Below, one piece after another: positions 7,496 to 51,616 of a stretch of 64,000 bases of DNA. Within the stretch, counting starts at the first letter, position 1. Every line of letters starts with the position of its first letter. The position numbers and the translations under genes are program-made. This DNA is from Escherichia coli (GTDB lineage: Bacteria > Pseudomonadota > Gammaproteobacteria > Enterobacterales > Enterobacteriaceae). The stretch lies in the NCBI RefSeq assembly GCF_024223415.1, contig NZ_CP100502.1; one strand, given 5' to 3'. The notes beneath the pieces were generated by a model. The model was not told where the DNA came from. It worked only from the letters and a program-made list of their open reading frames with translations, and ran no database searches.

Positions 7496-8179
7496 ATGTC
7501 CCGTTTTGTCCTCGGTAACTGCATTGATGTTATGGCGCGTATTCCTGATAACGGCATTGATTTCATACTGACTGACCCGCCATACCTCGTCGGTTTTCGT
7601 GACCGACAGGGGCGTACCATCGCCGGCGATAAAACCGATGAATGGCTGCAACCAGCCTGTAATGAAATGTATCGCGTACTCAAAAAAGATGCGCTGATGG
7701 TCAGCTTCTACGGCTGGAACCGCGTCGATCGCTTTATGGCCGCCTGGAAAAATGCGGGATTCAGTGTGGTTGGGCACCTGGTCTTCACCAAAAACTACAC
7801 ATCGAAGGCCGCATATGTGGGTTATCGCCACGAATGCGCCTACGTTCTGGCAAAAGGCCGTCCGGCGCTGCCTCAGAAGCCATTACCCGACGTGCTGGGC
7901 TGGAAATATTCAGGCAATCGTCATCACCCGACGGAAAAGCCTGTTACCAGCCTGCAACCACTGATTGAGAGCTTCACACATCCGAACGCGATTGTGCTGG
8001 ACCCGTTTGCAGGCAGCGGCTCAACCTGCGTGGCTGCCCTTCAGTCCGGACGCCGGTATATCGGTATCGAGCTGCTTGAGCAGTATCACCGTGCCGGACA
8101 GCAACGTCTGGCTGCCGTACAGCGGGCCATGCAGCAGGGGGCCGCAAATGATGACTGGTTTATGCCGGAGGCTGCGTAA
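7496..8179 (+). CDS. Orphan DNA adenine (N6) methyltransferase
   Basis: seq: 227 aa with 'FILTDPPY' (motif IV, DPPY) and 'DPFAGSGST' (AdoMet-binding motif I); GAAGGAG RBS. known: orphan MTases are common in plasmid leading regions. Confidence 0.85.
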   Translation: MSRFVLGNCIDVMARIPDNGIDFILTDPPYLVGFRDRQGRTIAGDKTDEWLQPACNEMYRVLKKDALMVSFYGWNRVDRFMAAWKNAGFSVVGHLVFTKNYTSKAAYVGYRHECAYVLAKGRPALPQKPLPDVLGWKYSGNRHHPTEKPVTSLQPLIESFTHPNAIVLDPFAGSGSTCVAALQSGRRYIGIELLEQYHRAGQQRLAAVQRAMQQGAANDDWFMPEAA

Positions 8180-8401
8180 ATGAACTATGCCGGACATGAA
8201 AAACTTCGCGCCGAAGTGGCGGAGGTGGCCAATGCCATGTGCGACCTGCGTACAACCATGAATGAGATGGAGCGGCGGTACAGCTTTAATGCTGACACCC
8301 TGCCGGAACGTCTGGTGCGTCAGACGTTGTTTCGCGCAAACCGCCTCCTGATGGAGGCATATACCGAAATTCTGGAACTGGATTCCTGCTTCAAAGATTG
8401 A
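8180..8401 (+). CDS. Hypothetical small protein
   Basis: seq: 73-aa ORF whose ATG directly follows the methyltransferase stop codon. Confidence 0.4.
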   Translation: MNYAGHEKLRAEVAEVANAMCDLRTTMNEMERRYSFNADTLPERLVRQTLFRANRLLMEAYTEILELDSCFKD

Positions 8402-8412
8402 GGGGAGAGAGT

Positions 8413-8847
8413 ATGTACGGAACATGCGAAATACTCTGCCGGGAGCTGGCAGCAAAGTATCCGGCAGACACGCCACTGATGCTGGTTGTCTGGTCCCCTG
8501 AAGAGATTCAGGCCCTCGCTGACGGAATGGATATTTCCCTGTCCGATCATGAAATCAGGACCGTCCTGGCGCGCCTGGAGGACATCCCGGAAGACCAGCG
8601 GATTGAGTCCGGTATTTCTTCCGGCGTGGCGATGGAGATTATCAGCAACGTGAGAGAAAACCGCCAGGTGACCGTCCCTGCTGAACTGCTGGCGTCCCTG
8701 ATTCAGACCGCTGAACAGGCACTGTGGAAACGTGAATGGGCCGCCCGTGATAACGGCCTTGCCGTCCCGGAATGTGTTACCCGCCGTCAGGCAGTGATTA
8801 ATCAGGCCCGCACCCTGCTGAAAAACAACACACACGAAAACAACTGA
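8413..8847 (+). CDS. Hypothetical protein, paralog of the 10558..10980 ORF
   Basis: seq: GAGGGGAGAGAG RBS before ATG 8413; 'MYGTCEIL...[14 protein letters not shown]...[17 protein letters not shown]' aligns with 'MYCTVKEI...SDDELETVMQRLDD...RHVTVPAMMLEKVMALA'. Confidence 0.5.
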
Positions 8848-8897
8848 TGTTATCGCCGCCTGCCCTGCGGGCGGCGATACAGGGAGAACGCTTAATC

Positions 8898-9668
8898 ATG
8901 AACAAAACGCTGAATGCACTGGTTTGTCGTCACGCCCGTAACCTGCTGCTGGCGCAGGGCTGGCCGGAAGAGACGGATGTTGACCAGCGAAATCCGAACT
9001 ATCCGGGCTGGATCAGCATTTACGTGCGGCTGGATGCGCCCCGGCTGGCGACGTTACTTATCAACCGTCACGGCGGCGTACTGCCGCCGCTCCTGGCCTC
9101 CGCCATTCAGAGACTGACCGGAACCGGGGCGGAACTGGTACTGTCCGGCAGTCAGTGGCAGTCGCTGCCGGTACTTCCGGCAGACGGAACGCAGGTGTCT
9201 TTCCCGTATGCCGGAGAATGGCTGACCGAAGACGAAATCAGGGCTGTTCTTGATGCGGTGCACGATGCGGTACGAAGCATCTGTTACCAGGTGGCAGAAG
9301 ATGCGCGGCGTATCCGTGCGGCGCTGACCACCACCGGTCAGACGTTGCTGACCCGCCAGACGCGCCGCTTTCGCCTGGTCGTGAAGGAAAGCGATCACCC
9401 CTGCTGGCTCGATGAAGATGACGAAAACCTGCCCGTGGTGCTCGATGCCATCGTGAACCGGGGAGCACGTTTTTCGTCGGTGGAAATGTACCTGGTCAGC
9501 GATTGTATTGAGCATATCCTGTCCTGTGGGCTGGCCTGCGATGTGCTGCGTATACCCGATGAACCGCCCCGCCGCTGGTTTGACCGTGGTGTTCTGCGGG
9601 AGGTGGTCCGGGAAGCCCGGACCGAAATCCGCAGCATGGCGGATGCCCTGGCAAAAATCCGGAAATGA
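8898..9668 (+). CDS. Hypothetical protein
   Basis: seq: GGGAGA RBS before ATG 8898 (track ORF from 8847, overlapping the previous stop); last gene of a four-gene cluster. Confidence 0.45.
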
Positions 9669-9726
9669 TGACACTGGCGGGGTAAATCCCCGCCTTTTTC
9701 CTGCCGGTCCCCGGACAGAGCACAAA

Positions 9727-10057
9727 GGAAGTCGCCGCCGGCTCCGCTTTACCCGGCCATGCGGGGCATGGCCTTGTGGGTTTTCAGTTATGTGGCCACC
9801 GTGTCGTGTGCGGGCTGTGCCGTGCCTCCATCTTAGCCGGGCTGGCAGGGATGCAAGGGTACGCTTCGCCGCTGCGGTCACCCGGTCCCTCCTTCCCGTC
9901 TGCCGTGATTTTCCGGTCGTTCACCCGCTCAGATTTCGCGGTCTCACCCTCCAACTCCCGCCAGCCGTGTGCGTCAGGCTGCGGCTTCCCTTGCGCCCTG
10001 TGCATCCCCGCCTTATCGCCCGGCTTTTATGGAGGCACGGCACCGCCCGGTGTCGCG
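9727..10057 (+). repeat. Family-A ssi/Frpo-like repeat, copy A1
   Basis: seq: about 330 nt nearly identical to 16711..17041, GC-rich and hairpin-rich, ending about 30 nt before a gene start. known: IncI1 and F leading regions carry ssi/Frpo single-strand promoters. Confidence 0.6.
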
Positions 10058-10085
10058 GAATATGTGAACAACGGAGGAATACATC

Positions 10086-10511
10086 ATGCAATATGCGAAA
10101 CCTGTCACTCTGAATGTTGAAGAGTGCGACCGTCTGTTTTTTCTGCCTTACCTGTTTGGCCAGGATTTTCTGTATGTCGAAGCGTCTGTGTACGCGCTGG
10201 CGAAAAAAATGATGCCGGAATATGAAGGCGGATTCTGGCACTTCATCCGCCTGCCGGACGGTGGCGGCTACATGATGCCGGATGGCGACCGTTTCCACAT
10301 AGTGAACGGTGCAAACTGGTTTGACCGTACCGTGAGTGCTGATGCCTGCGGCATCATTCTGACTTCCCTTGTGATTAACCGCCAGTTGTGGCTGTACCAC
10401 GACAGCGGTGATGCAGGACTGACCCAGCTTTACCGGATGCGCGATGCGCAGTTGTGGCGTCACATCGAATTTCACCCTGAATGCAACGCGATTTACGCGG
10501 CTCTGGACTGA
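10086..10511 (+). CDS. klcA: KlcA/ArdB-family antirestriction protein
   Basis: seq: 141 aa, '[51 protein letters not shown]' resembles KlcA/ArdB from memory; GGAGG RBS. Confidence 0.65.
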
Positions 10512-10557
10512 TTAACGGACGGGGCGGCAATGCCGCCCCTGTAAAGGAGACGAGAAA

Positions 10558-10980
10558 ATGTACTGTACTGTTAAAGAAATTATCCGCGAAGTGCTGGATA
10601 CAGACGTGCCGGACAGTGAATGCGTTTTTGCCGTGGTGCTGACCCGTGGGGATGTGCGTCACATAGCCCAGGACTGGAACCTGTCAGACGATGAGCTGGA
10701 AACCGTCATGCAGCGGCTGGACGATGCCTTTGAGCATGGTGCGGATGTCAGCGTTGTTCACGACGTTGTTCGTGAACTGATGGAAGAAAAGCGCGCCAGC
10801 CGTCATGTGACAGTCCCGGCGATGATGCTGGAAAAAGTGATGGCGCTGGCAGGCAGTGAAATGAAGCGCCTGTATGCCGTCGGAAGTGAGAACGGGGGCG
10901 ACGGTGACGCATTCGTCAGGGAGGAACGCGAAGCAATGGACGTTGTGTTACAGGCGCTGGACGGGGAGACGATGTCATGA
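10558..10980 (+). CDS. Hypothetical protein, paralog of the 8413..8847 ORF
   Basis: seq: AAGGAG RBS; shared blocks with the 8413 ORF (see there). Confidence 0.5.
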   Translation: MYCTVKEIIREVLDTDVPDSECVFAVVLTRGDVRHIAQDWNLSDDELETVMQRLDDAFEHGADVSVVHDVVRELMEEKRASRHVTVPAMMLEKVMALAGSEMKRLYAVGSENGGDGDAFVREEREAMDVVLQALDGETMS

Positions 10981-11168
10981 ATATCAGCACAGAAACCCGC
11001 GAAATTCTGCGTAATTACAGGGCCGTGATTAATGCGCGGCGTCGTGAAATGGGGCAGAAACCGCTCACCACCGCGCAGATTGTTGATGAAATCTGCGATT
11101 TTGTGGCGAATCAGCAGGCGGTTTTCCTGGGCGGTCACTACATCTTACAGGGCAGCAGAAACAGGTGA
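10977..11168 (+). CDS. Hypothetical small protein
   Basis: seq: 63-aa ORF overlapping the preceding stop (ATGA). Confidence 0.3.
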   Translation: MNISTETREILRNYRAVINARRREMGQKPLTTAQIVDEICDFVANQQAVFLGGHYILQGSRNR

Positions 11169-11199
11169 TACAGGGGCAGGCGGTGGAGGCCGCCTGTCA

Positions 11200-11905
11200 G
11201 CCCGCGCGAAAACCCCTGGCAGGCTGACGCCTGCCGGAAGGGAAGCGGGCCACGCTGGCGCGTCGCCCGTTACCCTTCCCGTCTGTGATGTGTCTGACTC
11301 AGGAGTGTTTCTTTCTTATGTTATGGAACTGTTCCTGATGTTGTTGTTCCTTTATCTGCTGCTCTGATTCTGACTACTGCAGTGTTGTTCTGTCTGCCGG
11401 GCGCACCTTCGGCTCCCGGCTGCCTGGCGGCATCCGGTCGTCAGGCCCGACTCCGACAGGCAGCTGCTGGCGCACCCGCCAGTCTCCGCCGAACCCGCTG
11501 GCGCGGTTTCGGGCTGTCGCTACGGTCCGATGCGTGAAAACCCGGGCTTGCAGCGACCGTTCCGGTCGCGCCGCCTCTGTCGCGCCGTGACCTGCGCTCC
11601 CTGCACACCTGACGGTGTGTGAGGAAACTGCGCCTGATGGCGCAGCAGTCCTCCCTCCTGCCGCCACCTCTGCGGCCTGTTTCCCGCTGTGGACTTTCCG
11701 GGGGGCAGACGTAACCCCCTCCCGTTCCATCTGTCCAGGGTGAGATGCACCGGCCACAAAATTTTTAGCCATGAACCCGGCAAAAAATTTTGCGTCCGCC
11801 CCCGGACAGCTGTCCCGTGAGGCGGTAAACGGGCCCCCATCGGAAAGGTCCACTGCGGGGAGAAACCCCTGTGAAGTGGACGGCAGGAGGAGCTTTCGCT
11901 CCTCT
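11200..11905 (+). repeat. Family-B ssi/Frpo-like repeat, copy B1
   Basis: seq: long GC-rich repeat shared with 17600..18250 and partly with 20815..21140 (e.g. 'caccttcggctcccggctgcctggcggcatccggtcgtcaggcccgactccgacaggcag'); ends about 70 nt before ssb. Confidence 0.55.
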
Positions 11906-16607: not shown

Positions 16608-16710
16608 ACCAGACATGTATATTTTACGCAGGGACACGCCGATCATGATCGTTTCATATCAGGGGTGGTCTGGAGGTCATGCGGCGTGTCCTCTGCACTC
16701 GCCGGAATAA

Positions 16711-17041
16711 GGAAGTCGCCGGCGGCTCCGCTTTTACCCGGCCATGCGGGGCATGGCCTTGTGGGTTTTCAGCTCTGTGGCCTCAGCGTCGTGTGCGGGC
16801 TGTGCCGTGCCTCCATCTTAGCCGGGCTGGCAGGGATGCAAGGGTACGCTTCGCCGCTGCGGTCACCCGGTCCCTCCTTCCCGTCTGCCGTGATTTTCCG
16901 GTCGTTCACCCGCTCAGATTTCGCGGTCTCACCCTCCAACTCCCGCCAGCCGTGTGCGTCAGGCTGCGGCTTCCCTTGCGCCCTGTGCATCCCCGCCTTA
17001 TCGCCCGGCTTTTATGGAGGCACGGCACCGCCCGGTGTCGC
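16711..17041 (+). repeat. Family-A ssi/Frpo-like repeat, copy A2
   Basis: seq: near-identical to 9727..10057; ends about 30 nt before ardA. Confidence 0.6.
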
Positions 17042-17069
17042 AGAACATGTGACTATGGAGGATTCGGGA

Positions 17070-17599: not shown

Positions 17600-18250
17600 C
17601 CTGCCAGGCCGCCGGAAAACCCTGGCAGGCTTACGCCTGCCTGAAATGCAGGAGGGCCGCGCCTGCGGCGCTGCCCTTCCTGCCCGTCATGGTGTGAGGC
17701 ATTTTTCTGTTATGTCGTTTCTGTTGTTCTGATTTCCGGAGGCGGGGACACCTTCGGCTCCCGGCTGCCTGGCGGCATCCGGTCGTCAGGCCCGACTCCG
17801 ACAGGCAGCTGCTGGCGCACCCGCCAGTCTCCGCCGAACCCGCTGGCGCGGTTTCGGGCTGCCGCTACGGTCCGATGTCTGAAAAACCAGGCTTGCAGCG
17901 ACCGTTCCGGTCGCGCCGCCCCTGTCGCGCCGGAAACGGCGCTCCCTGCACACCTTACGGTGTGTAAGGCAACTGCGCCTGATGGCGCAGTCAACCCTTC
18001 CGCCGCCACCCCTGCGGCCTGTTTCCCGCTGTGGACTTTCCGGGGGCTGGAGTAACCACATCCCGTTTCAGCAGTCCAGGGGAAGATATACCGTCCACAA
18101 AATTTTTAGCCATAAACCCGGCAAAAAATTTTGCGTCCGCCCCCGGACAGCTGCCCCGTGACGTGGTGACGGACGCCCCATCGGAAAGGTCCACTGCGGG
18201 GAGAAACCCCGAAGAAGTGGACGGCAGAAGGGGCTTTCGCCCCTCCGGGG
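17600..18250 (+). repeat. Family-B ssi/Frpo-like repeat, copy B2
   Basis: seq: aligns along its length with 11200..11905; starts right after the ardA stop. Confidence 0.55.
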
Positions 18251-30353: not shown

Positions 30354-30505
30354 GACAAAGTCTCCATTTCTGGAATTTAAATCAAACGGAAAGGTTAAAA
30401 ATTTATTTGCAGGCGATAAGAGCTAACCAGAGGAATTAGCCGTGCGATAAAAGGATTGTTGCAGATACGAAAGTCGTTAGAATAGCTGCGGGCGCTTGAG
30501 GCTGT

Positions 30506-30790
30506 ATGCCGAAAGCGTTTTGTGGACGGTATACAGCAGAAAGCCCCTGGAGATTTTTTTATCAATCAACCAAGGGCTCTACTGTAATGCCTAGACAACA
30601 TTATAGTAGCCCGATAACCGCCGTAAGGCAATGGAGGGGCTATGATGCCACAGCGAACGTTTTTAATGATGTTAATCGTCATCTGTGTGACGATTCTGTG
30701 TTTTGTCTGGATGGTGAGGGATTCGCTTTGCGGACTCCGGCTCCAGCAGGGAAACACAGTGCTTGTGGCAACGTTAGCCTACGAAGTTAA
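30506..30790 (+). CDS. pndC: pndC (mok-like) overlapping reading frame
   Basis: seq: ORF overlapping pndA in another frame and ending 7 nt before its stop, as in hok/mok loci. Confidence 0.45.
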   Translation: MPKAFCGRYTAESPWRFFYQSTKGSTVMPRQHYSSPITAVRQWRGYDATANVFNDVNRHLCDDSVFCLDGEGFALRTPAPAGKHSACGNVSLRS

Positions 30791-31263: not shown

Positions 31264-31294
31264 CAACAGATGTAAAAAAACCGACTGGTGAGGT
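31264..31294. terminator. Bidirectional Rho-independent terminator
   Basis: seq: 'aaaaaaaccgacTGGTGAGgtcggttttttt', 6-bp stem flanked by an A-run and a T-run. Confidence 0.6.
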
Positions 31295-31336
31295 CGGTTT
31301 TTTTACTGTTCCGTTACAGAGTGGGTGGCCCTGACC

Positions 31337-31360
31337 GGAGGAAATCTCTTTTCAACTAAC
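31337..31360 (+). repeat. 24-bp direct repeat copy 1 (ggaggaaatctcttttcaactaac)
   Basis: seq: repeated at 31524..31547 with one mismatch; followed by TATAAT-like hexamers at 31366 and 31403; its first 10 nt are the reverse complement of 31593..31602. Confidence 0.8.
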
Positions 31361-46847: not shown

Positions 46848-47191
46848 AGGTTGTAGTCCTTCCAGGGATCAATATTCCCCGGCAGCTTTTCATTCACCTT
46901 GTCCACGACCGCGTCGCAGACCTGGTTTTCCAGCTGCGACAGAATGTCGTCAAGGCTGGGGAACTGGGGGAGGTTTATGCTGATTTTTTTGATTCGTGAC
47001 AGACAGGACTGCAGGGATGAGGAAACATCGTTTTCACGTTGTGACCATGCATCCGCAGCTGCACGTGCTCGCTCATATCCTGTATTACTACCGGCCTGTG
47101 CCGCGCTACCCGCACGACAGGTTGCAGCACTTGCCGTGGATGAAATCAGGATAAGGCCGAGCACGGCAACCAGAGACTTATGCATGTTCAT
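46844..47191 (-). CDS. traL: TraL, secreted small protein
   Basis: seq: 115 aa with signal peptide 'MNMHKSLVAVLGLILISSTASA'. Confidence 0.6.
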   Translation of the reverse strand: MNMHKSLVAVLGLILISSTASAATCRAGSAAQAGSNTGYERARAAADAWSQRENDVSSSLQSCLSRIKKISINLPQFPSLDDILSQLENQVCDAVVDKVNEKLPGNIDPWKDYNL

Positions 47192-47208
47192 ATGGCTTCC
47201 TTACCGGC

Positions 47209-50200
47209 TCATCGGCCGGGGCTGTGGGAGAGATCCTGATGCAGAGTTTTTTCCTGCCTGTCCTCCGGCTTTTGGCTGTTGGACCACTGCTGCCATGACT
47301 GCTCGAAGCCCAGGTTTCGGTACAACGCATCAGGTTGTTTTTCCGGCGTGTAGACAGCAGCAAAAAGCGGTTCTTCCCGGGTTTTCAGATGAAACTGCAT
47401 AAGCTCCGGTGCGGGGCGATTCGTGCTGTCAGCATCGTGGTTTACCGCTTCACCATAACCTGCAAAGCGTAAACCTTTGTCGGTCAGCGCATTGATAACC
47501 AACTGACTGTTGTCGGCCGATGGGGTGGCCAGTGCCGGATACAATGTGCCGTTCAGCCGGACCACACCCTGCAGATGTTCATCGGCACTCTGGACAAGTA
47601 ACAGGTTGAGTTCACGCGTATCCTTATCCACTGATCCCAGAACAGGTGTCAGCTTGTCAGGGGCTGCGCTGGTTATTTCTGTTACCTGATTCGCGTTCTG
47701 TGGCGCGGAGACCGGATGTCGGTCTTCACCGATAAACAGATGTGAGCCGACGTTTTCTGGCATACGTAACGCTTTCATCTCTTCGGGCCACCCCTGGCTG
47801 ATTTGCGCAGCCACTTTCATAAAGGTTTCGACCGGAATCGCCTGAATACGCTGACCTTTATCCGGATTATCATGTGATACCGAGATCCCGTTGGTAACTG
47901 ACTCCATGGACCACTTATTCCGGAAACGTGCTTTTTGCTCTCCCGGGAGGATGAATTGTTCGCGGTTCTGAAGTGTCAGTGTCACCACGTCACCTTTCTG
48001 ATGGTTTTTGACCAGACTTTCCAGTTGTTCCCCCCAGTAGAGTTTGCTGCCACTGCGGTTTTTAAGCTCAACAAAGAAACTCTCTCCTTTGCCGGGTGCA
48101 TATTCAGCACGACCAAAATTGTGCAGTACGGCAGTCACGCTCTCTCCCGGGCGAAGTTTTCCTGGTGGTTCTTCGTCTGGTGCCACATCTGCCGTTTTGC
48201 CTGGTTCAGCCGGTGATGGTGCAGAGGCGGTGCTGACGGTTGATGCTTCAGGGGCAACAGGGGACGCCGGGGATTGTGTGGCTTCTTTTTCCTGAACGGG
48301 GTCAGGGACAGCCGGTTGTTCTGGGGTATTCCGGTTAAGTTCCGGTGTTGGCTGATGGGTGACAACTGCATCCTTACTGACAGCCATTTCCTTGCGTAAT
48401 TTTTCTAGTTCAGCCCGTTGATCTGGCAATTTCATCCGGACATCGATGTTGTGCTCGATAATCAACTGCATTGCTTTTTGCTTAAAGGCATCACTGCCCG
48501 TCAGCTCTATGACGCCCCCATAAAATTTGGTGGCCACAGCAAGTGCGGCCAGAACGCTGCGATCGTCATTGCTGGCACCGTTGACCATTTCCAGCCGGTT
48601 TACCCGGTCAATGAAGGCAGGTTTGCCATCCAGTTTGTACAGGACGGTTCTGTCTGCTCGTTTTTCCCAGTCAAGCTCTTTAAGAATTTCGTCCATGTTG
48701 AGCGATATCGGTGCATCAGAACGTTCCGGGGCGTAGACAATACTGTCAGGTATCGGTGGAGTCGTCGTGGTTTCCGCTGAGGGCGTGGGATCACTGTTCT
48801 CATGTGCCTGTGAATCCGTTTTTTTACGCGTAAAAAAGCCACGCGCTTTGTCGAGAAACGATGAAGTATTATCAGAAGGTGATGTGCTCTGAACAGGTTG
48901 CTGTGGAGTGGGTTCATCCCGGACAGCCGGTTCTGCAGTATCTGTTGTGGCCTGAAGTTCTGACTCATCTGCCTGAACGTGGTCTGTGTCCGGTTGCGAC
49001 GGCATATCACTGTTTTCCTGCAGATGCTCAGGATTTTCATTGTTCATCAGCTCCTGATATGCGCTGTAGTTTTCGTATTCTTCGGGGCCATCTGACTCAG
49101 GAAGGAACGGCTCTGGCTGAAGGGGAATGTCTTCAGTTACATGGTTGACCGCCTCTTCCCGGGGAGTATCCGGGGATATTCCGGTGCTTTGTTTGTCATC
49201 AGGCTCCGTCATCACGGTCATTTCCTCTTTGACTGCATCAGGGGAAGGTGATGGCTCGGCTGATTCATTCATGGTTTCAGATGAGGGACTGTCTTCAGGG
49301 GATGCGGGGGCGGCAGCAGGGGCCGGTATTTCAGGTGAAGTGCCGGATTCCTGTTGTGACTCGTTTTTTTCCGGTTGTGACAGTTCGGCTTCAAATTCAC
49401 GCCAGTCTTTATCTGTGGCCACCGAGACAACTTTTTCCGGAGGTTCCGCCGGATGAGCGGGTTCATCAGGGGCAGATGCCGTTGTACTTTCCGGGGACGC
49501 CGGTGATTCTGCAGGGGAGTCCTGAACTACAGAGCTTTCCGTTTGCGCCTGAACGTTATCAGCGTGCCGCTCATCTTTGCCGTTATTTTCAGTGGCGTGA
49601 CTGGTAAATGACTGTGTTTCATCAGCAATGTTACTGCTGGAAGCAGCTGGTTGTTCCTGCTGCGTGGCGGACGGCAGAGAAGGTCCCTGGTCATGGCTGT
49701 GCCCTGTATCGGGTGATGTTTCAGGATATTCTGTCGGAGTCATGGTTTTTTCCTCAGTGTGGACCGGTGTAAAAACGAGGTTGCCGATCACCAGTGCCTC
49801 GCGGATTTCCGGGGTGTTACTGTTGGGGGTGGAAACCCCGATGTGTTCTAACTGGGCGTTGATGACATGCTGAAAAGCGGCCCGTCCCCGGCTTGCGTCC
49901 AGGTCATTGAAATCGGTCAGCCCCTGCGCTTTTTCGGCATCGGTGAACGCAGGAAAGATGACCGTTCCTCCTGTCAGTTCTGCGGCTTTTGTTGCACTGA
50001 CGATACCTTTGTTAACCCGGATTGCATGATCGTTGTCGGCACAGAAGATAAAGGGGCTTTGCGTCCACTTTTGCCGGGCATTTTCGGCAACGGCAATCAT
50101 GTTGCCTCCATCCACCGTCATCAGTACCGGAAGGCCCGTGGCTTCGTGCAGGGAGGCCGCAGTGGCATAGCCCTCGGCAAACAGTACCGGCTGACCGTTG

Positions 50201-50976
50201 CGCGGTGTGCCCAGCGCAAACCAGTTACCGGTTTTCTCTGAATCTTTCAGGATGCGGGCATCCTTCCCCCCGGTGACCGGAATACGCTGGTAAGAGCGTA
50301 TCGCGCCGTTACGGTTACTGAAGGGAATAACCAGTTCATTTTTGTTGTTTACCCGCACCCCCGGTGCAGCCTGAATGCCTTTCCGGGTCAGGTATTCATG
50401 TGCTGTGGCCTGCGGCCATTTGTTGACATAGCGGCGGGCATACGCGGCCTGTCGGTTGTACTGTGCTTTCAGTTCCCGCTCCGCGTCCTCCCTGCGTTGC
50501 ATTGAATGCGCTTTCAGGTGGAGTCTTGCGCGGGGATCTGTCTGTTCTCCGCCGGAGAAGGTCCAGGTGATCGGCGAATCATCCGCGCTGCGATAATCCC
50601 TGTACCAGCCGGCAGGTCTGCCGTCCAGGAATCCGCGATATGCGCCACTTTTTTGTCCTTTTTTGTCATCGGCGGTCGGGACACGGTGGATTTTCCCGTC
50701 CATGACCGGCAGTTCTTTCAGAACCAGTCCGGCATTCTCCAGAACCTGGGCAAACTCGGTGACCGGATCACTGCCGTTCATGGAGACGTCCTGTGGCCGG
50801 GGCAGCCAGCGGTCCAGCCTGGACAGGTCCGCCCCCGGGCGGGCGAACCAGAGTTTGTGCTCCTTGTCCCAGATGACGGGCGTGTGCCCGTTCATCGGGG
50901 GATGTGCTTTTTTGAGATCTTCTATTTCATCTGCAGGCACGGCAAGCCAGGTGCGGTAGCGGGATACAGACGGCAT
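47209..50976 (-). CDS. sog: Sog conjugative DNA primase
   Basis: seq: ATG 50976 with GGAG RBS gives 1255 aa 'MPSVSRYRTW...' (track ORF 1301 aa from 51114); acidic/Pro-rich middle region. known: size and position match IncI1 Sog. Confidence 0.85.
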   Translation of the reverse strand: MPSVSRYRTWLAVPADEIEDLKKAHPPMNGHTPVIWDKEHKLWFARPGADLSRLDRWLPRPQDVSMNGSDPVTEFAQVLENAGLVLKELPVMDGKIHRVPTADDKKGQKSGAYRGFLDGRPAGWYRDYRSADDSPITWTFSGGEQTDPRARLHLKAHSMQRREDAERELKAQYNRQAAYARRYVNKWPQATAHEYLTRKGIQAAPGVRVNNKNELVIPFSNRNGAIRSYQRIPVTGGKDARILKDSEKTGNWFALGTPRNGQPVLFAEGYATAASLHEATGLPVLMTVDGGNMIAVAENARQKWTQSPFIFCADNDHAIRVNKGIVSATKAAELTGGTVIFPAFTDAEKAQGLTDFNDLDASRGRAAFQHVINAQLEHIGVSTPNSNTPEIREALVIGNLVFTPVHTEEKTMTPTEYPETSPDTGHSHDQGPSLPSATQQEQPAASSSNIADETQSFTSHATENNGKDERHADNVQAQTESSVVQDSPAESPASPESTTASAPDEPAHPAEPPEKVVSVATDKDWREFEAELSQPEKNESQQESGTSPEIPAPAAAPASPEDSPSSETMNESAEPSPSPDAVKEEMTVMTEPDDKQSTGISPDTPREEAVNHVTEDIPLQPEPFLPESDGPEEYENYSAYQELMNNENPEHLQENSDMPSQPDTDHVQADESELQATTDTAEPAVRDEPTPQQPVQSTSPSDNTSSFLDKARGFFTRKKTDSQAHENSDPTPSAETTTTPPIPDSIVYAPERSDAPISLNMDEILKELDWEKRADRTVLYKLDGKPAFIDRVNRLEMVNGASNDDRSVLAALAVATKFYGGVIELTGSDAFKQKAMQLIIEHNIDVRMKLPDQRAELEKLRKEMAVSKDAVVTHQPTPELNRNTPEQPAVPDPVQEKEATQSPASPVAPEASTVSTASAPSPAEPGKTADVAPDEEPPGKLRPGESVTAVLHNFGRAEYAPGKGESFFVELKNRSGSKLYWGEQLESLVKNHQKGDVVTLTLQNREQFILPGEQKARFRNKWSMESVTNGISVSHDNPDKGQRIQAIPVETFMKVAAQISQGWPEEMKALRMPENVGSHLFIGEDRHPVSAPQNANQVTEITSAAPDKLTPVLGSVDKDTRELNLLLVQSADEHLQGVVRLNGTLYPALATPSADNSQLVINALTDKGLRFAGYGEAVNHDADSTNRPAPELMQFHLKTREEPLFAAVYTPEKQPDALYRNLGFEQSWQQWSNSQKPEDRQEKTLHQDLSHSPGR

Positions 50977-51064
50977 GAGTGCTTCTCCTGAAAAAAGACG
51001 GAAAAAAACCACCGCCGGAAGCCGGGGGGGCTGGGGGGATAGAAAATCGGGGGAGAAATGTTTG

Positions 51065-51616
51065 TCAGGGTTTCCAGTCTGTACCCTTATTCCAGCGATC
51101 CTGCCAGTGTTCAAGATATTGTGCGGCTACATCCGGCATATTCTTGAGCACAACGACATTCTCTGAATTCTTGCGTGCAGCAGCACGAGAGAAGTTATAG
51201 GAGCCAGTTTCAACCGTGTTTCCGTCAACAATGATGACTTTGTCGTGATGGATGGGGAAGGCATCTACAGTCCGGAGAGGAATGTCCAGCAGGTTGATAT
51301 ATTTCATCGCTTCCTGACTTGCCCGGTTCGTATTCCCCTTGTCATCAACAACAATACGGACGTCCACTCCGCGTTTTTTCGCTTTTGCCAGCGCATGCAT
51401 TACATCCGGGTCGGTGAAGGAATATGCCATCATCCTGATGGAGCTTTCCGCACTGTTGATTGTGTCAAGCACCAGAGCGGATGCGCTTCCTTCAGGAGAA
51501 AAGCCGACCTTCACGGATGGCGTGTCGATCATTGCAAACGATGGTGTCGTGAACAGTAACGGGCATGCCAGTAGCGATACCCGGAGCAGAGTAACGATAG
51601 TTTTTTTACCTGACAT
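51065..51616 (-). CDS. nuc: Secreted phospholipase-D-family endonuclease Nuc
   Basis: seq: ATG 51616 with GGAG RBS gives 183 aa 'MSGKKTIVTLLRVSLLACPLLF...'; HKD motif 'IHHDKVIIVDGNTVETGSYNFSRAA' (track ORF 303 aa). Confidence 0.8.
   Translation of the reverse strand: MSGKKTIVTLLRVSLLACPLLFTTPSFAMIDTPSVKVGFSPEGSASALVLDTINSAESSIRMMAYSFTDPDVMHALAKAKKRGVDVRIVVDDKGNTNRASQEAMKYINLLDIPLRTVDAFPIHHDKVIIVDGNTVETGSYNFSRAAARKNSENVVVLKNMPDVAAQYLEHWQDRWNKGTDWKP

Follow-up and report, generated by a model that had tools for sequence, protein, structure and literature searches.

Gene content and reference plasmids

The window (the whole 64,000-nt stretch of Escherichia coli DNA that was analyzed) carries on its minus strand a region that, judged by its sequence, is the well-known sog DNA primase gene of an IncI1 conjugative plasmid, already known and part of textbook plasmid biology. 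Many IncI1 plasmids match the region with 100% identity. R64 and ColIb-P9 were used as references in their RefSeq versions NC_005014 and NC_002122 (GenBank AP005147 and AB021078, respectively). The gene lies in the IncI1 tra operon with nuc on one side and traL on the other, and the gene order traJ – traK – nuc (PLD) – sog – traL – traM is shared by the identical plasmids, R64 and ColIb-P9. The genes and initiation signals are listed below.

51065–51616, minus strand: nuc, the gene upstream of sog, encoding a nuclease of the phospholipase D family (stop codon TGA at 51067–51065)
50977–51114, minus strand: spurious 46-codon extension of sog, formed by the 3'-terminal 50 nt of nuc read in a different frame and the nuc–sog intergenic region
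50985–50989, minus strand: Shine-Dalgarno (SD) sequence AGGAG of SogL, 8 nt upstream of ATG 50976 (sequence and duplex score)
47209–50976, minus strand: sogL coding sequence, the long form, 1255 aa and stop (open reading frame list, annotated records and comparison with R64)
49751–49755, minus strand: candidate SD sequence GAGGA of SogS, in an A-rich stretch with little folding, 7 nt ahead of ATG 49743
47209–49743, minus strand: predicted sogS coding sequence, 844 aa and stop, starting at Met412 in frame with sogL and lacking the primase domain

The length of the Sog product is 1255 aa in the window, R64 and ColIb-P9 alike. It differs from R64 SogL in one of the 1255 residues (A1177T). Comparison with ColIb-P9 sog, which the first-pass annotation had proposed as a check, yielded products of equal length differing in 35 of the 1255 residues. 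The gene encoding SogL and SogS is the same in both references, and both translation-initiation regions are identical to those in the window; apart from the residues, the sole difference is that the window lacks 1 nt in the intergenic region upstream of sog.

Domain organization of Sog

In SogL, the primase domain at the N-terminus is followed by an acidic linker, then an LPD7 domain and finally a C-terminal domain. The following features were mapped.

50800–50955, minus strand: DUF5710, aa 8–59 (34.9 bits, profile positions 1–44 of 44), beginning 7 residues past Met1
49882–50181, minus strand: Toprim-type primase core, aa 266–365 (Toprim_3, 23.5 bits, below the gathering score of 27.2)
50158–50175, minus strand: EGYATA motif, aa 268–273 (E268–A273 invariant across 8 homologues)
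48697–49743, minus strand: hypervariable acidic Pro/Ser/Thr-rich linker, approximately aa 412–760, the N-terminal part of SogS
48391–48654, minus strand: LPD7 domain (PF18821), aa 775–862 (52.9 bits, gathering score 27)

The linker has a pI of 4.05, contains 20.9% D+E and 13.5% P, and cannot be aligned between lineages. The only tandem repeat found in the gene, linker included, was a trivial 20-nt one (a 10-nt unit repeated twice, 50648–50667). A sequence search of the PDB with Sog produced no match.

Start of the long form

The open reading frame list gives 47209–51114 (minus strand, 1301 aa), opening at TTG 51114. As the first-pass annotation had stated, the frame extends 46 codons beyond an ATG at 50976 supported by a ribosome-binding site (138 nt from 51114 to 50976). 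Its claim of a 1255-aa product beginning at this ATG is likewise borne out: AGGAG lies 8 nt upstream, the start is annotated in public records, and the interval from 50976 to 47209 comprises 3768 nt, that is, 1255 codons and the stop. The sequence leading up to the ATG is cAGGAGaagcactcATG; its duplex with the anti-SD is computed at −7.4 kcal/mol, and the SD is identical in R64, ColIb-P9, L006 and L007. In every sampled RefSeq, GenBank and ENA record the CDS starts at the ATG equivalent to 50976; database entries with exactly this 1255-aa sequence are named DNA primase and LPD7 domain-containing protein. In homologues with 52–56% identity, the start is the aligned Met, preceded by an SD of its own, and 5–20 codons upstream are open. 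The Pfam DUF5710 match begins at residue 8, near the chosen Met1, and DNA similarity with IncK/B/O/Z plasmids sets in 12 nt past the sog ATG.

Initiation of the long form at TTG 51114, which would add 46 residues at the N-terminus (1301 aa in all), is extremely improbable. The frame is indeed open from 51114 in the window, and TTG is usable as a bacterial start codon. However, this TTG lacks an SD (duplex +0.9 kcal/mol vs −7.4 at 50976) and sits 50 nt inside nuc, shifted by +1 relative to the nuc frame. No sampled annotated record has a CDS start there, distant homologues lack the extension, and in about 90% of IncI1-type plasmids, R64 and ColIb-P9 among them, it is not in frame with sog. The extension frame is open only because this plasmid lineage misses one intergenic A. 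In R64, ColIb-P9, L006 and L007, which have one additional intergenic A, the sog frame is shut 37 codons upstream, and the only potential start upstream of the sog ATG is a GTG at −12 without an SD. The distribution of the two spacer forms was assessed with an 80-nt query spanning the intergenic indel (blastn mode); the shorter, window-type spacer was found in 133 of 1353 IncI1-type plasmids (about 10%), and R64 and ColIb-P9 have the other form. A family search with the extension peptide gave no match. The stretch of 46 codons ahead of ATG 50976 is evidently non-coding, a spurious extension.

The start of the Pseudomonas syringae homologue (L013) seemed to lie about 40 codons too far upstream, but the search for a better one gave nothing convincing, and the idea was dropped.

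Internal start and the short form

That IncI1 sog gives rise to two in-frame products, as the first-pass annotation had claimed, is documented in the literature: SogL of 1255 aa and SogS of 844 aa (PMC6112013; the 844 figure is second-hand there and is backed by deposited sequences). For pESBL the forms are of 1254 and 843 aa, and the coordinates in Table 2 of that study put the SogS start at codon 412 (PMC4288162). The exact 844-aa sequence of the window is deposited under the name SogS; the exact 844-aa sequences of R64 (entry including BAB91667.1) and ColIb-P9 (entry including BAA75162.1) are deposited as well.

We predict that the internal start of the short form is exactly ATG 49743 (Met412); this placement is our only addition to the earlier account. 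When SD strength and local mRNA folding were scored, the region ctGAGGAaaaaaccATG became conspicuous. The SD duplex of Met412 is −6.1 kcal/mol and the local fold −4.8 kcal/mol, which places it among the 1.1% of codon positions with the least structure. Among 41 internal in-frame starts, Met412 alone combines an SD duplex of −4 kcal/mol or stronger with local folding in the least structured 10%. The expectation that this start lies in the first third of the gene holds only just (codon 412 of 1255, 32.8%), and the view that it is not identifiable by eye was too pessimistic, as SD strength and folding single out ATG 49743.

A counterpart start after the primase domain was observed in most relatives. 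The codon aligned with Met412 is ATG or GTG in L008–L011. The filter based on SD and folding selects a Met located 29–52 residues past the FNDL motif in L010, L011, L013, L016 and L017, and L008, L009 and L014 have a boundary start with a weak SD; in L015 a clear start at the primase-domain boundary was sought and not found. A promoter scan of the minus strand inside and just upstream of sog yielded no sigma-70-like site, and therefore at that stringency there is no sign of a separate sogS promoter. The SogS start is said to have been mapped by Narahara et al. in 1997 (Plasmid 38:1) and in earlier work of the Wilkins laboratory.

Two other origins of the short form were weighed against initiation at Met412. 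Proteolytic cleavage of SogL in the linker, without internal initiation, is very unlikely: the long, probably disordered acidic linker past residue 411 is a typical protease target, but an in-frame translational (re)start is described for the short form (PMC6112013), and the combination of an SD and an ATG lying right at the domain boundary, in the least structured 1.1% of the mRNA, argues against proteolysis. So do the preservation of the boundary start codon across lineages, an ATG-to-GTG change included, and the fact that the SogL-only part mostly tolerates transposon insertions, whereas the SogS part is required. Still less probable is initiation at one of the other in-frame codons preceded by SD-like sequences, namely Met293 (ATG 50100, GGAGG), Val396 (GTG 49791) or Met644 (ATG 49047, AGGAG). 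The Met293 duplex is the strongest in the gene (−9.3 kcal/mol), and by comparison the SD of SogS is only moderate (−6.1 kcal/mol). On the other hand, only 4 nt separate Met293 from its SD, the mRNA around it is strongly folded (−18.7 kcal/mol, approximately the 90th percentile for structure), and the SD is made up of Gly-Gly codons where relatives have Ala-Gly. The products of the three codons would comprise 963, 860 and 612 aa, respectively, vs the published 844 aa, and the deposited SogS sequences begin at Met412, not at any of the three.

Two products of one frame

Given the preferred start at Met412, one sog frame with two starts very probably yields SogL (from 50976) and SogS (from 49743), and the upstream 46 codons are not translated as Sog. 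Ribosomes binding at ATG 50976 (SD AGGAG) would produce SogL of 1255 aa with a predicted mass of 138 kDa, presumably a DNA primase joined by the long acidic linker to the LPD7-containing C-terminal part. Ribosomes binding at the internal ATG 49743 (SD GAGGA, open A-rich mRNA) would produce SogS of 844 aa with a predicted mass of 92 kDa; it would consist of the linker and the C-terminal part with the primase absent, the internal start falling exactly at the end of the conserved primase domain. Internal initiation probably occurs by direct ribosome binding and not by coupled re-initiation. The apparent sizes of the Sog polypeptides are 210 and 160 kDa.

According to published work, both Sog polypeptides are made, primase activity is present, and the polypeptides are transferred to the recipient in conjugation (PMC6112013, PMC8406263, PMC7213743). 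In transposon sequencing of pESBL, the SogS part scored 1.00 as ‘required for transfer’, while the whole of SogL scored 0.74, with 0.26 non-essential (PMC4288162). These insertion scores fit a dispensable N-terminal third and SogS expression independent of SogL translation; the transposon’s outward-reading promoter could be another cause of the tolerated N-terminal insertions.

The value of these results is mainly in annotation, and no open biological question hinges on them. Choosing the longest ORF makes sog 46 codons too long in one IncI1 lineage, and most automatic annotations omit SogS, though conjugative transfer of an IncI-type ESBL plasmid needs the SogS part (PMC4288162). sogS is also among the loci of the IncI1 plasmid MLST scheme (PMC2887853).

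Related plasmid primases

Pri of IncM/IncL plasmids (pCTX-M3 and pOXA-48 type) is, like Sog, an MPF_I primase in which a variable linker connects the N-terminal primase domain to a C-terminal part with LPD7. For pCTX-M3 Pri a shorter in-frame product was proposed (1070 and 689 aa), and deletion of pri impairs transfer more strongly than deletion of sog in R64 (PMC6112013). The IncL homologue L017 has in-frame Met382 and Met388, both preceded by an SD, past the primase domain. Identity between IncM/IncL Pri and Sog is only about 36% in the primase domain, and the linkers are unrelated.

RP4 TraC (Pri, IncP) yields two in-frame products from one gene. It belongs to another mating-pair-formation type, MPF_T. 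Like Sog, this plasmid primase passes into the recipient; it has a Toprim domain and an EGYATA-type motif, corresponding to the EGYATA motif and putative Toprim core of Sog (domain comparison in PMC7213743). The two proteins have opposite domain orders, with Toprim C-terminal in RP4 TraC1 and N-terminal in Sog (PMC7213743), and therefore the short IncP form retains the primase, whereas SogS loses it.

An SD-preceded start in open mRNA at the domain boundary was observed in plasmids from Pseudomonas, Klebsiella and Leclercia and in IncL-type plasmids. In some of these plasmids the predicted N-terminus of the short form carries T-M-[T/P]-[P/V]-T-[D/E] inside the otherwise unalignable linker. We tentatively suggest that the pair of a full-length and a primase-less product, the latter from an internal start right behind the primase domain, may be ancestral to all MPF_I primases and not specific to IncI1.

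Spacer between nuc and sog

One further feature was seen in the intergenic region.

51007–51032, minus strand: terminator-like hairpin between nuc and sog, followed by U7 at 51000–51006 (folding alone)

A consensus terminator scan of the nuc–sog spacer retrieved only a 5-bp stem at 51013–50997 and not this hairpin, and the whole 111-nt spacer folds no better than shuffled sequences; the short hairpin is notable only when folded alone, chiefly in the R64 form. The A missing in this lineage falls between 51029 and 51028, in the 5’ arm of the hairpin (CCAGCCACCCCCGG in the R64-type spacer vs CCAGCCCCCCCGG in the window-type one). This one-base deletion weakens the hairpin, the R64 form having −17.2 kcal/mol (z −3.6) and the window form −12.4 kcal/mol (z −1.4). 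Perhaps, and separately from the origin of the two products, the deletion could raise read-through into sog.

Identity of the gene

The ORF listing of the window contains a long minus-strand frame, which overlaps the upstream gene as follows.

47209..51114 (−), 1301-aa ORF with a TTG start
51065-51616, CDS of nuc (phospholipase D family nuclease)

The 4.2 kb around this ORF are 100% identical in dozens of IncI1-type conjugative plasmids from E. coli, Salmonella, Shigella and Klebsiella, and matches to the region were found in 1838 plasmid records. In these records, as well as in the IncI1 reference plasmids R64 and ColIb-P9, the gene is the primase gene sog, located between nuc and traL of the tra operon. 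Over its first 47 kb, which comprise the leading region, nikAB, trbABC, pnd, excA and the stretch from traY to traL, the window is colinear with pIFM3804, an IncI1 plasmid. An ISEc23 element (IS66-like) interrupts the region matching window positions 47100-51300 in NZ_CP062869 and leaves two separate matches.

The aligned Sog proteins are all 1255 aa long; that of the window differs from R64 Sog by one residue (A1177T) and from ColIb-P9 Sog, the comparison proposed in the first-pass annotation, by 35 residues. The EGYATA primase motif (aa 268-273) is unchanged across eight homologues, and a sequence search detected no solved structure for Sog.

Pfam matches of Sog
DUF5710: aa 8-59
Toprim_3: aa 266-365 (23.5 bits, slightly below the gathering score of 27.2)
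LPD7: aa 775-862

Start of the long form

The ORF extends 46 codons upstream of ATG 50976, which is directly preceded by cAGGAGaagcactcATG and yields a product of 1255 aa. Five independent lines of evidence (the Shine-Dalgarno (SD) duplex, the overlap with nuc, a deletion, homologues and annotation) point to this ATG rather than TTG 51114 as the start of the long form, SogL, as the first-pass annotation had proposed on noticing the extension. The computed duplex with the anti-SD has an energy of −7.4 kcal/mol upstream of 50976 and +0.9 kcal/mol upstream of 51114. TTG 51114 lies 50 nt within the nuc CDS at a frame offset of +1, the remainder of the extension being the nuc-sog spacer; in a family search the 46-codon extension peptide matched no protein family.

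R64, ColIb-P9 and two further IncI plasmids have CCAGCCACCCCCGG in the spacer, whereas the window has CCAGCCCCCCCGG. Where the extra A is present, the open sog frame reaches back no more than 37 codons from the ATG, and the only in-frame upstream start codon left is a GTG at −12, which has no SD. Thus the frame is open upstream of ATG 50976 in the window because of a one-base deletion. The form of the spacer found in the window, at ≥99% identity, is present in 133 of 1353 spacer-carrying plasmids, and therefore the over-long ORF occurs in about one tenth of the family; another 1211 fall into the 95–99% identity band, where for most sampled plasmids the match spans 81 nt, not 80. The over-long ORF is hence explained by a lineage-specific intergenic deletion of one base.

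Distant Sog homologues (52–56% identity), taken from IncK2/Z-typed, IncI-gamma/K1-typed, Leclercia and Enterobacter plasmids, all start at the Met that aligns with this one, each behind an SD of its own, and upstream of it the frame is open for just 5–20 codons. In IncK/B/O/Z plasmids, DNA similarity to the window sets in 12 nt past the ATG. The start at ATG 50976 is annotated in RefSeq, GenBank and ENA. In the P. syringae homologue (L013) the annotated start lies about 40 codons upstream of the onset of homology and lacks an SD.

The spacer also contains the following element.

51000-51032 (−), terminator-like hairpin between nuc and sog, GC-rich and with a tail of seven U

The base missing from the window lineage, and likewise from roughly 10% of the 1353 spacer-carrying IncI1-type plasmids, is an A between 51029 and 51028. 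Its absence breaks an A-U pair and displaces the stem, and hence the hairpin is weaker in the window (−12.4 kcal/mol, z = −1.4) than in R64 (−17.2 kcal/mol, z = −3.6). Judging from the predicted folds, the deletion could change the level of transcriptional read-through into sog.

Internal start of the short form

The products of sog are SogL (1255 aa) and SogS (844 aa), the latter arising by translational re-initiation inside the sog reading frame (PMC6112013, where Narahara et al. 1997 is among the references). The coordinates given for pESBL (SogL 7629-11393, SogS 7629-10160; PMC4288162, Table 2) correspond to 1254 and 843 aa. Both sources place the SogS start at codon 412, which in the window is ATG 49743 with ctGAGGAaaaaaccATG directly upstream; R64 and ColIb-P9 have the same context. 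Exact look-up found the 844-aa sequences of all three plasmids in public databases: that of the window is deposited under the name SogS (UniRef A0A0C5BRZ7), that of R64 as BAB91667.1 and BAA77999.1, and that of ColIb-P9 as BAA75162.1. Together with the near-identity to R64, this bears out the earlier identification of the gene as sog with two in-frame polypeptides.

The start can be recognised without prior knowledge, by its SD and weak local folding. The computed SD duplex at ATG 49743 is −6.1 kcal/mol, and the surrounding 60 nt fold with −4.8 kcal/mol, which puts this codon among the 1.1% with the weakest local structure in sog. We required an SD of −4 kcal/mol or lower and a local fold among the 10% with the least structure; among 41 internal in-frame ATG, GTG and TTG codons only ATG 49743 passed this filter. 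Met293 has a stronger SD, but with a spacer of only 4 nt and tightly folded mRNA; this SD is built from Gly-Gly codons, replaced by Ala-Gly in relatives, which makes Met293 a poor candidate. Met412 is the exact junction between the conserved primase domain and a hypervariable, acidic (pI 4.05), Pro/Ser/Thr-rich linker (aa 412-760).

The first-pass annotation was right that the short form starts internally and in frame; the site that it considered unidentifiable by eye is ATG 49743. Since the gene has been characterised since the 1980s and 1990s, the findings on sog were already known, and the only refinements are this exact start and the one-base-deletion account of the over-long ORF.

Candidate starts at the domain boundary in compared plasmid loci
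L008: ATG 410, aligned with Met412; fails the filter (weak SD, open mRNA)
L009: GTG 410, aligned with Met412; fails (weak SD, open mRNA)
L010, L011 (Leclercia, Enterobacter): Met408; passes
L013 (P. syringae): Met425; passes
L014: Met404; fails (weak SD, open mRNA)
L015: no convincing boundary codon; fails
L016 (Klebsiella): Met429; passes
L017 (IncL): Met388; passes, one of two passing codons

The Met picked by the filter (L010, L011, L013, L016, L017) always lies 29–52 residues past the FNDL motif. Several predicted short forms open with a similar T-M-[T/P]-[P/V]-T-[D/E] string. The predicted N-termini TMPTD and TMTVP of distant I-type primases (L013:3081-3230, L016, L017) are comparable to TMTPTE of the window. 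These sequence comparisons suggest that the two-product arrangement, already proposed for pCTX-M3 Pri (PMC6112013), is widespread among I-type plasmid primases. In the Citrobacter sp. CRE-46 plasmid (L012, 3201-6002) no CDS is annotated for the primase part of the sog homologue, a C-terminal fragment with LPD7 being all that is called; the gene may be disrupted, or the annotation may be limited to the short-form part.

Proposed working of the two products

Most likely, a single mRNA and a single reading frame have two ribosome entry points, the internal one being used either by free 30S subunits or by ribosomes that terminate and then re-initiate. A promoter scan found no sigma-70-like promoter on the coding strand within sog. 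SogL (predicted mass 138.0 kDa) includes a basic primase module (45.6 kDa, pI 9.1), and SogS (predicted mass 92.4 kDa) comprises the acidic linker, LPD7 and the C-terminal part. The apparent gel sizes of the Sog products are about 210 and 160 kDa. This 50-kDa gap is in keeping with an N-terminal module of 411 residues; the anomalously slow migration would be accounted for by the linker, which is acidic and proline-rich.

According to the literature, large amounts of Sog protein pass into the recipient during conjugation (PMC8406263, PMC7213743). In transposon sequencing of pESBL, the SogS portion had a "required for transfer" score of 1.00, and the whole SogL scored 0.74 for "required for transfer" and 0.26 for non-essential (PMC4288162). 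These scores fit a dispensable primase third and SogS expression independent of translation from Met1.

Other features of the window

30490-30647 (+), Rfam sok antitoxin RNA (134 bits), a known feature, adjoining the Hok/Gef-family gene of the IncI1 pnd post-segregational killing system
31272-31359 (−), Rfam AgrB antisense RNA match (55 bits), adjoining the DinQ-like type I toxin gene dqlB annotated in the colinear plasmid
9725-10078 and 16709-17062, dispersed repeat pair, leading region
11398-11904 and 17752-18245, dispersed repeat pair, leading region

The repeats, detected as cross-matches in the comparison of the window with pIFM3804, are about 350 and 500 bp long, are roughly 90–96% identical and lie in the neighbourhood of ssb, psiB and ardA. 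They may be repeated single-strand-initiation/promoter elements of the kind known from plasmid leading regions.
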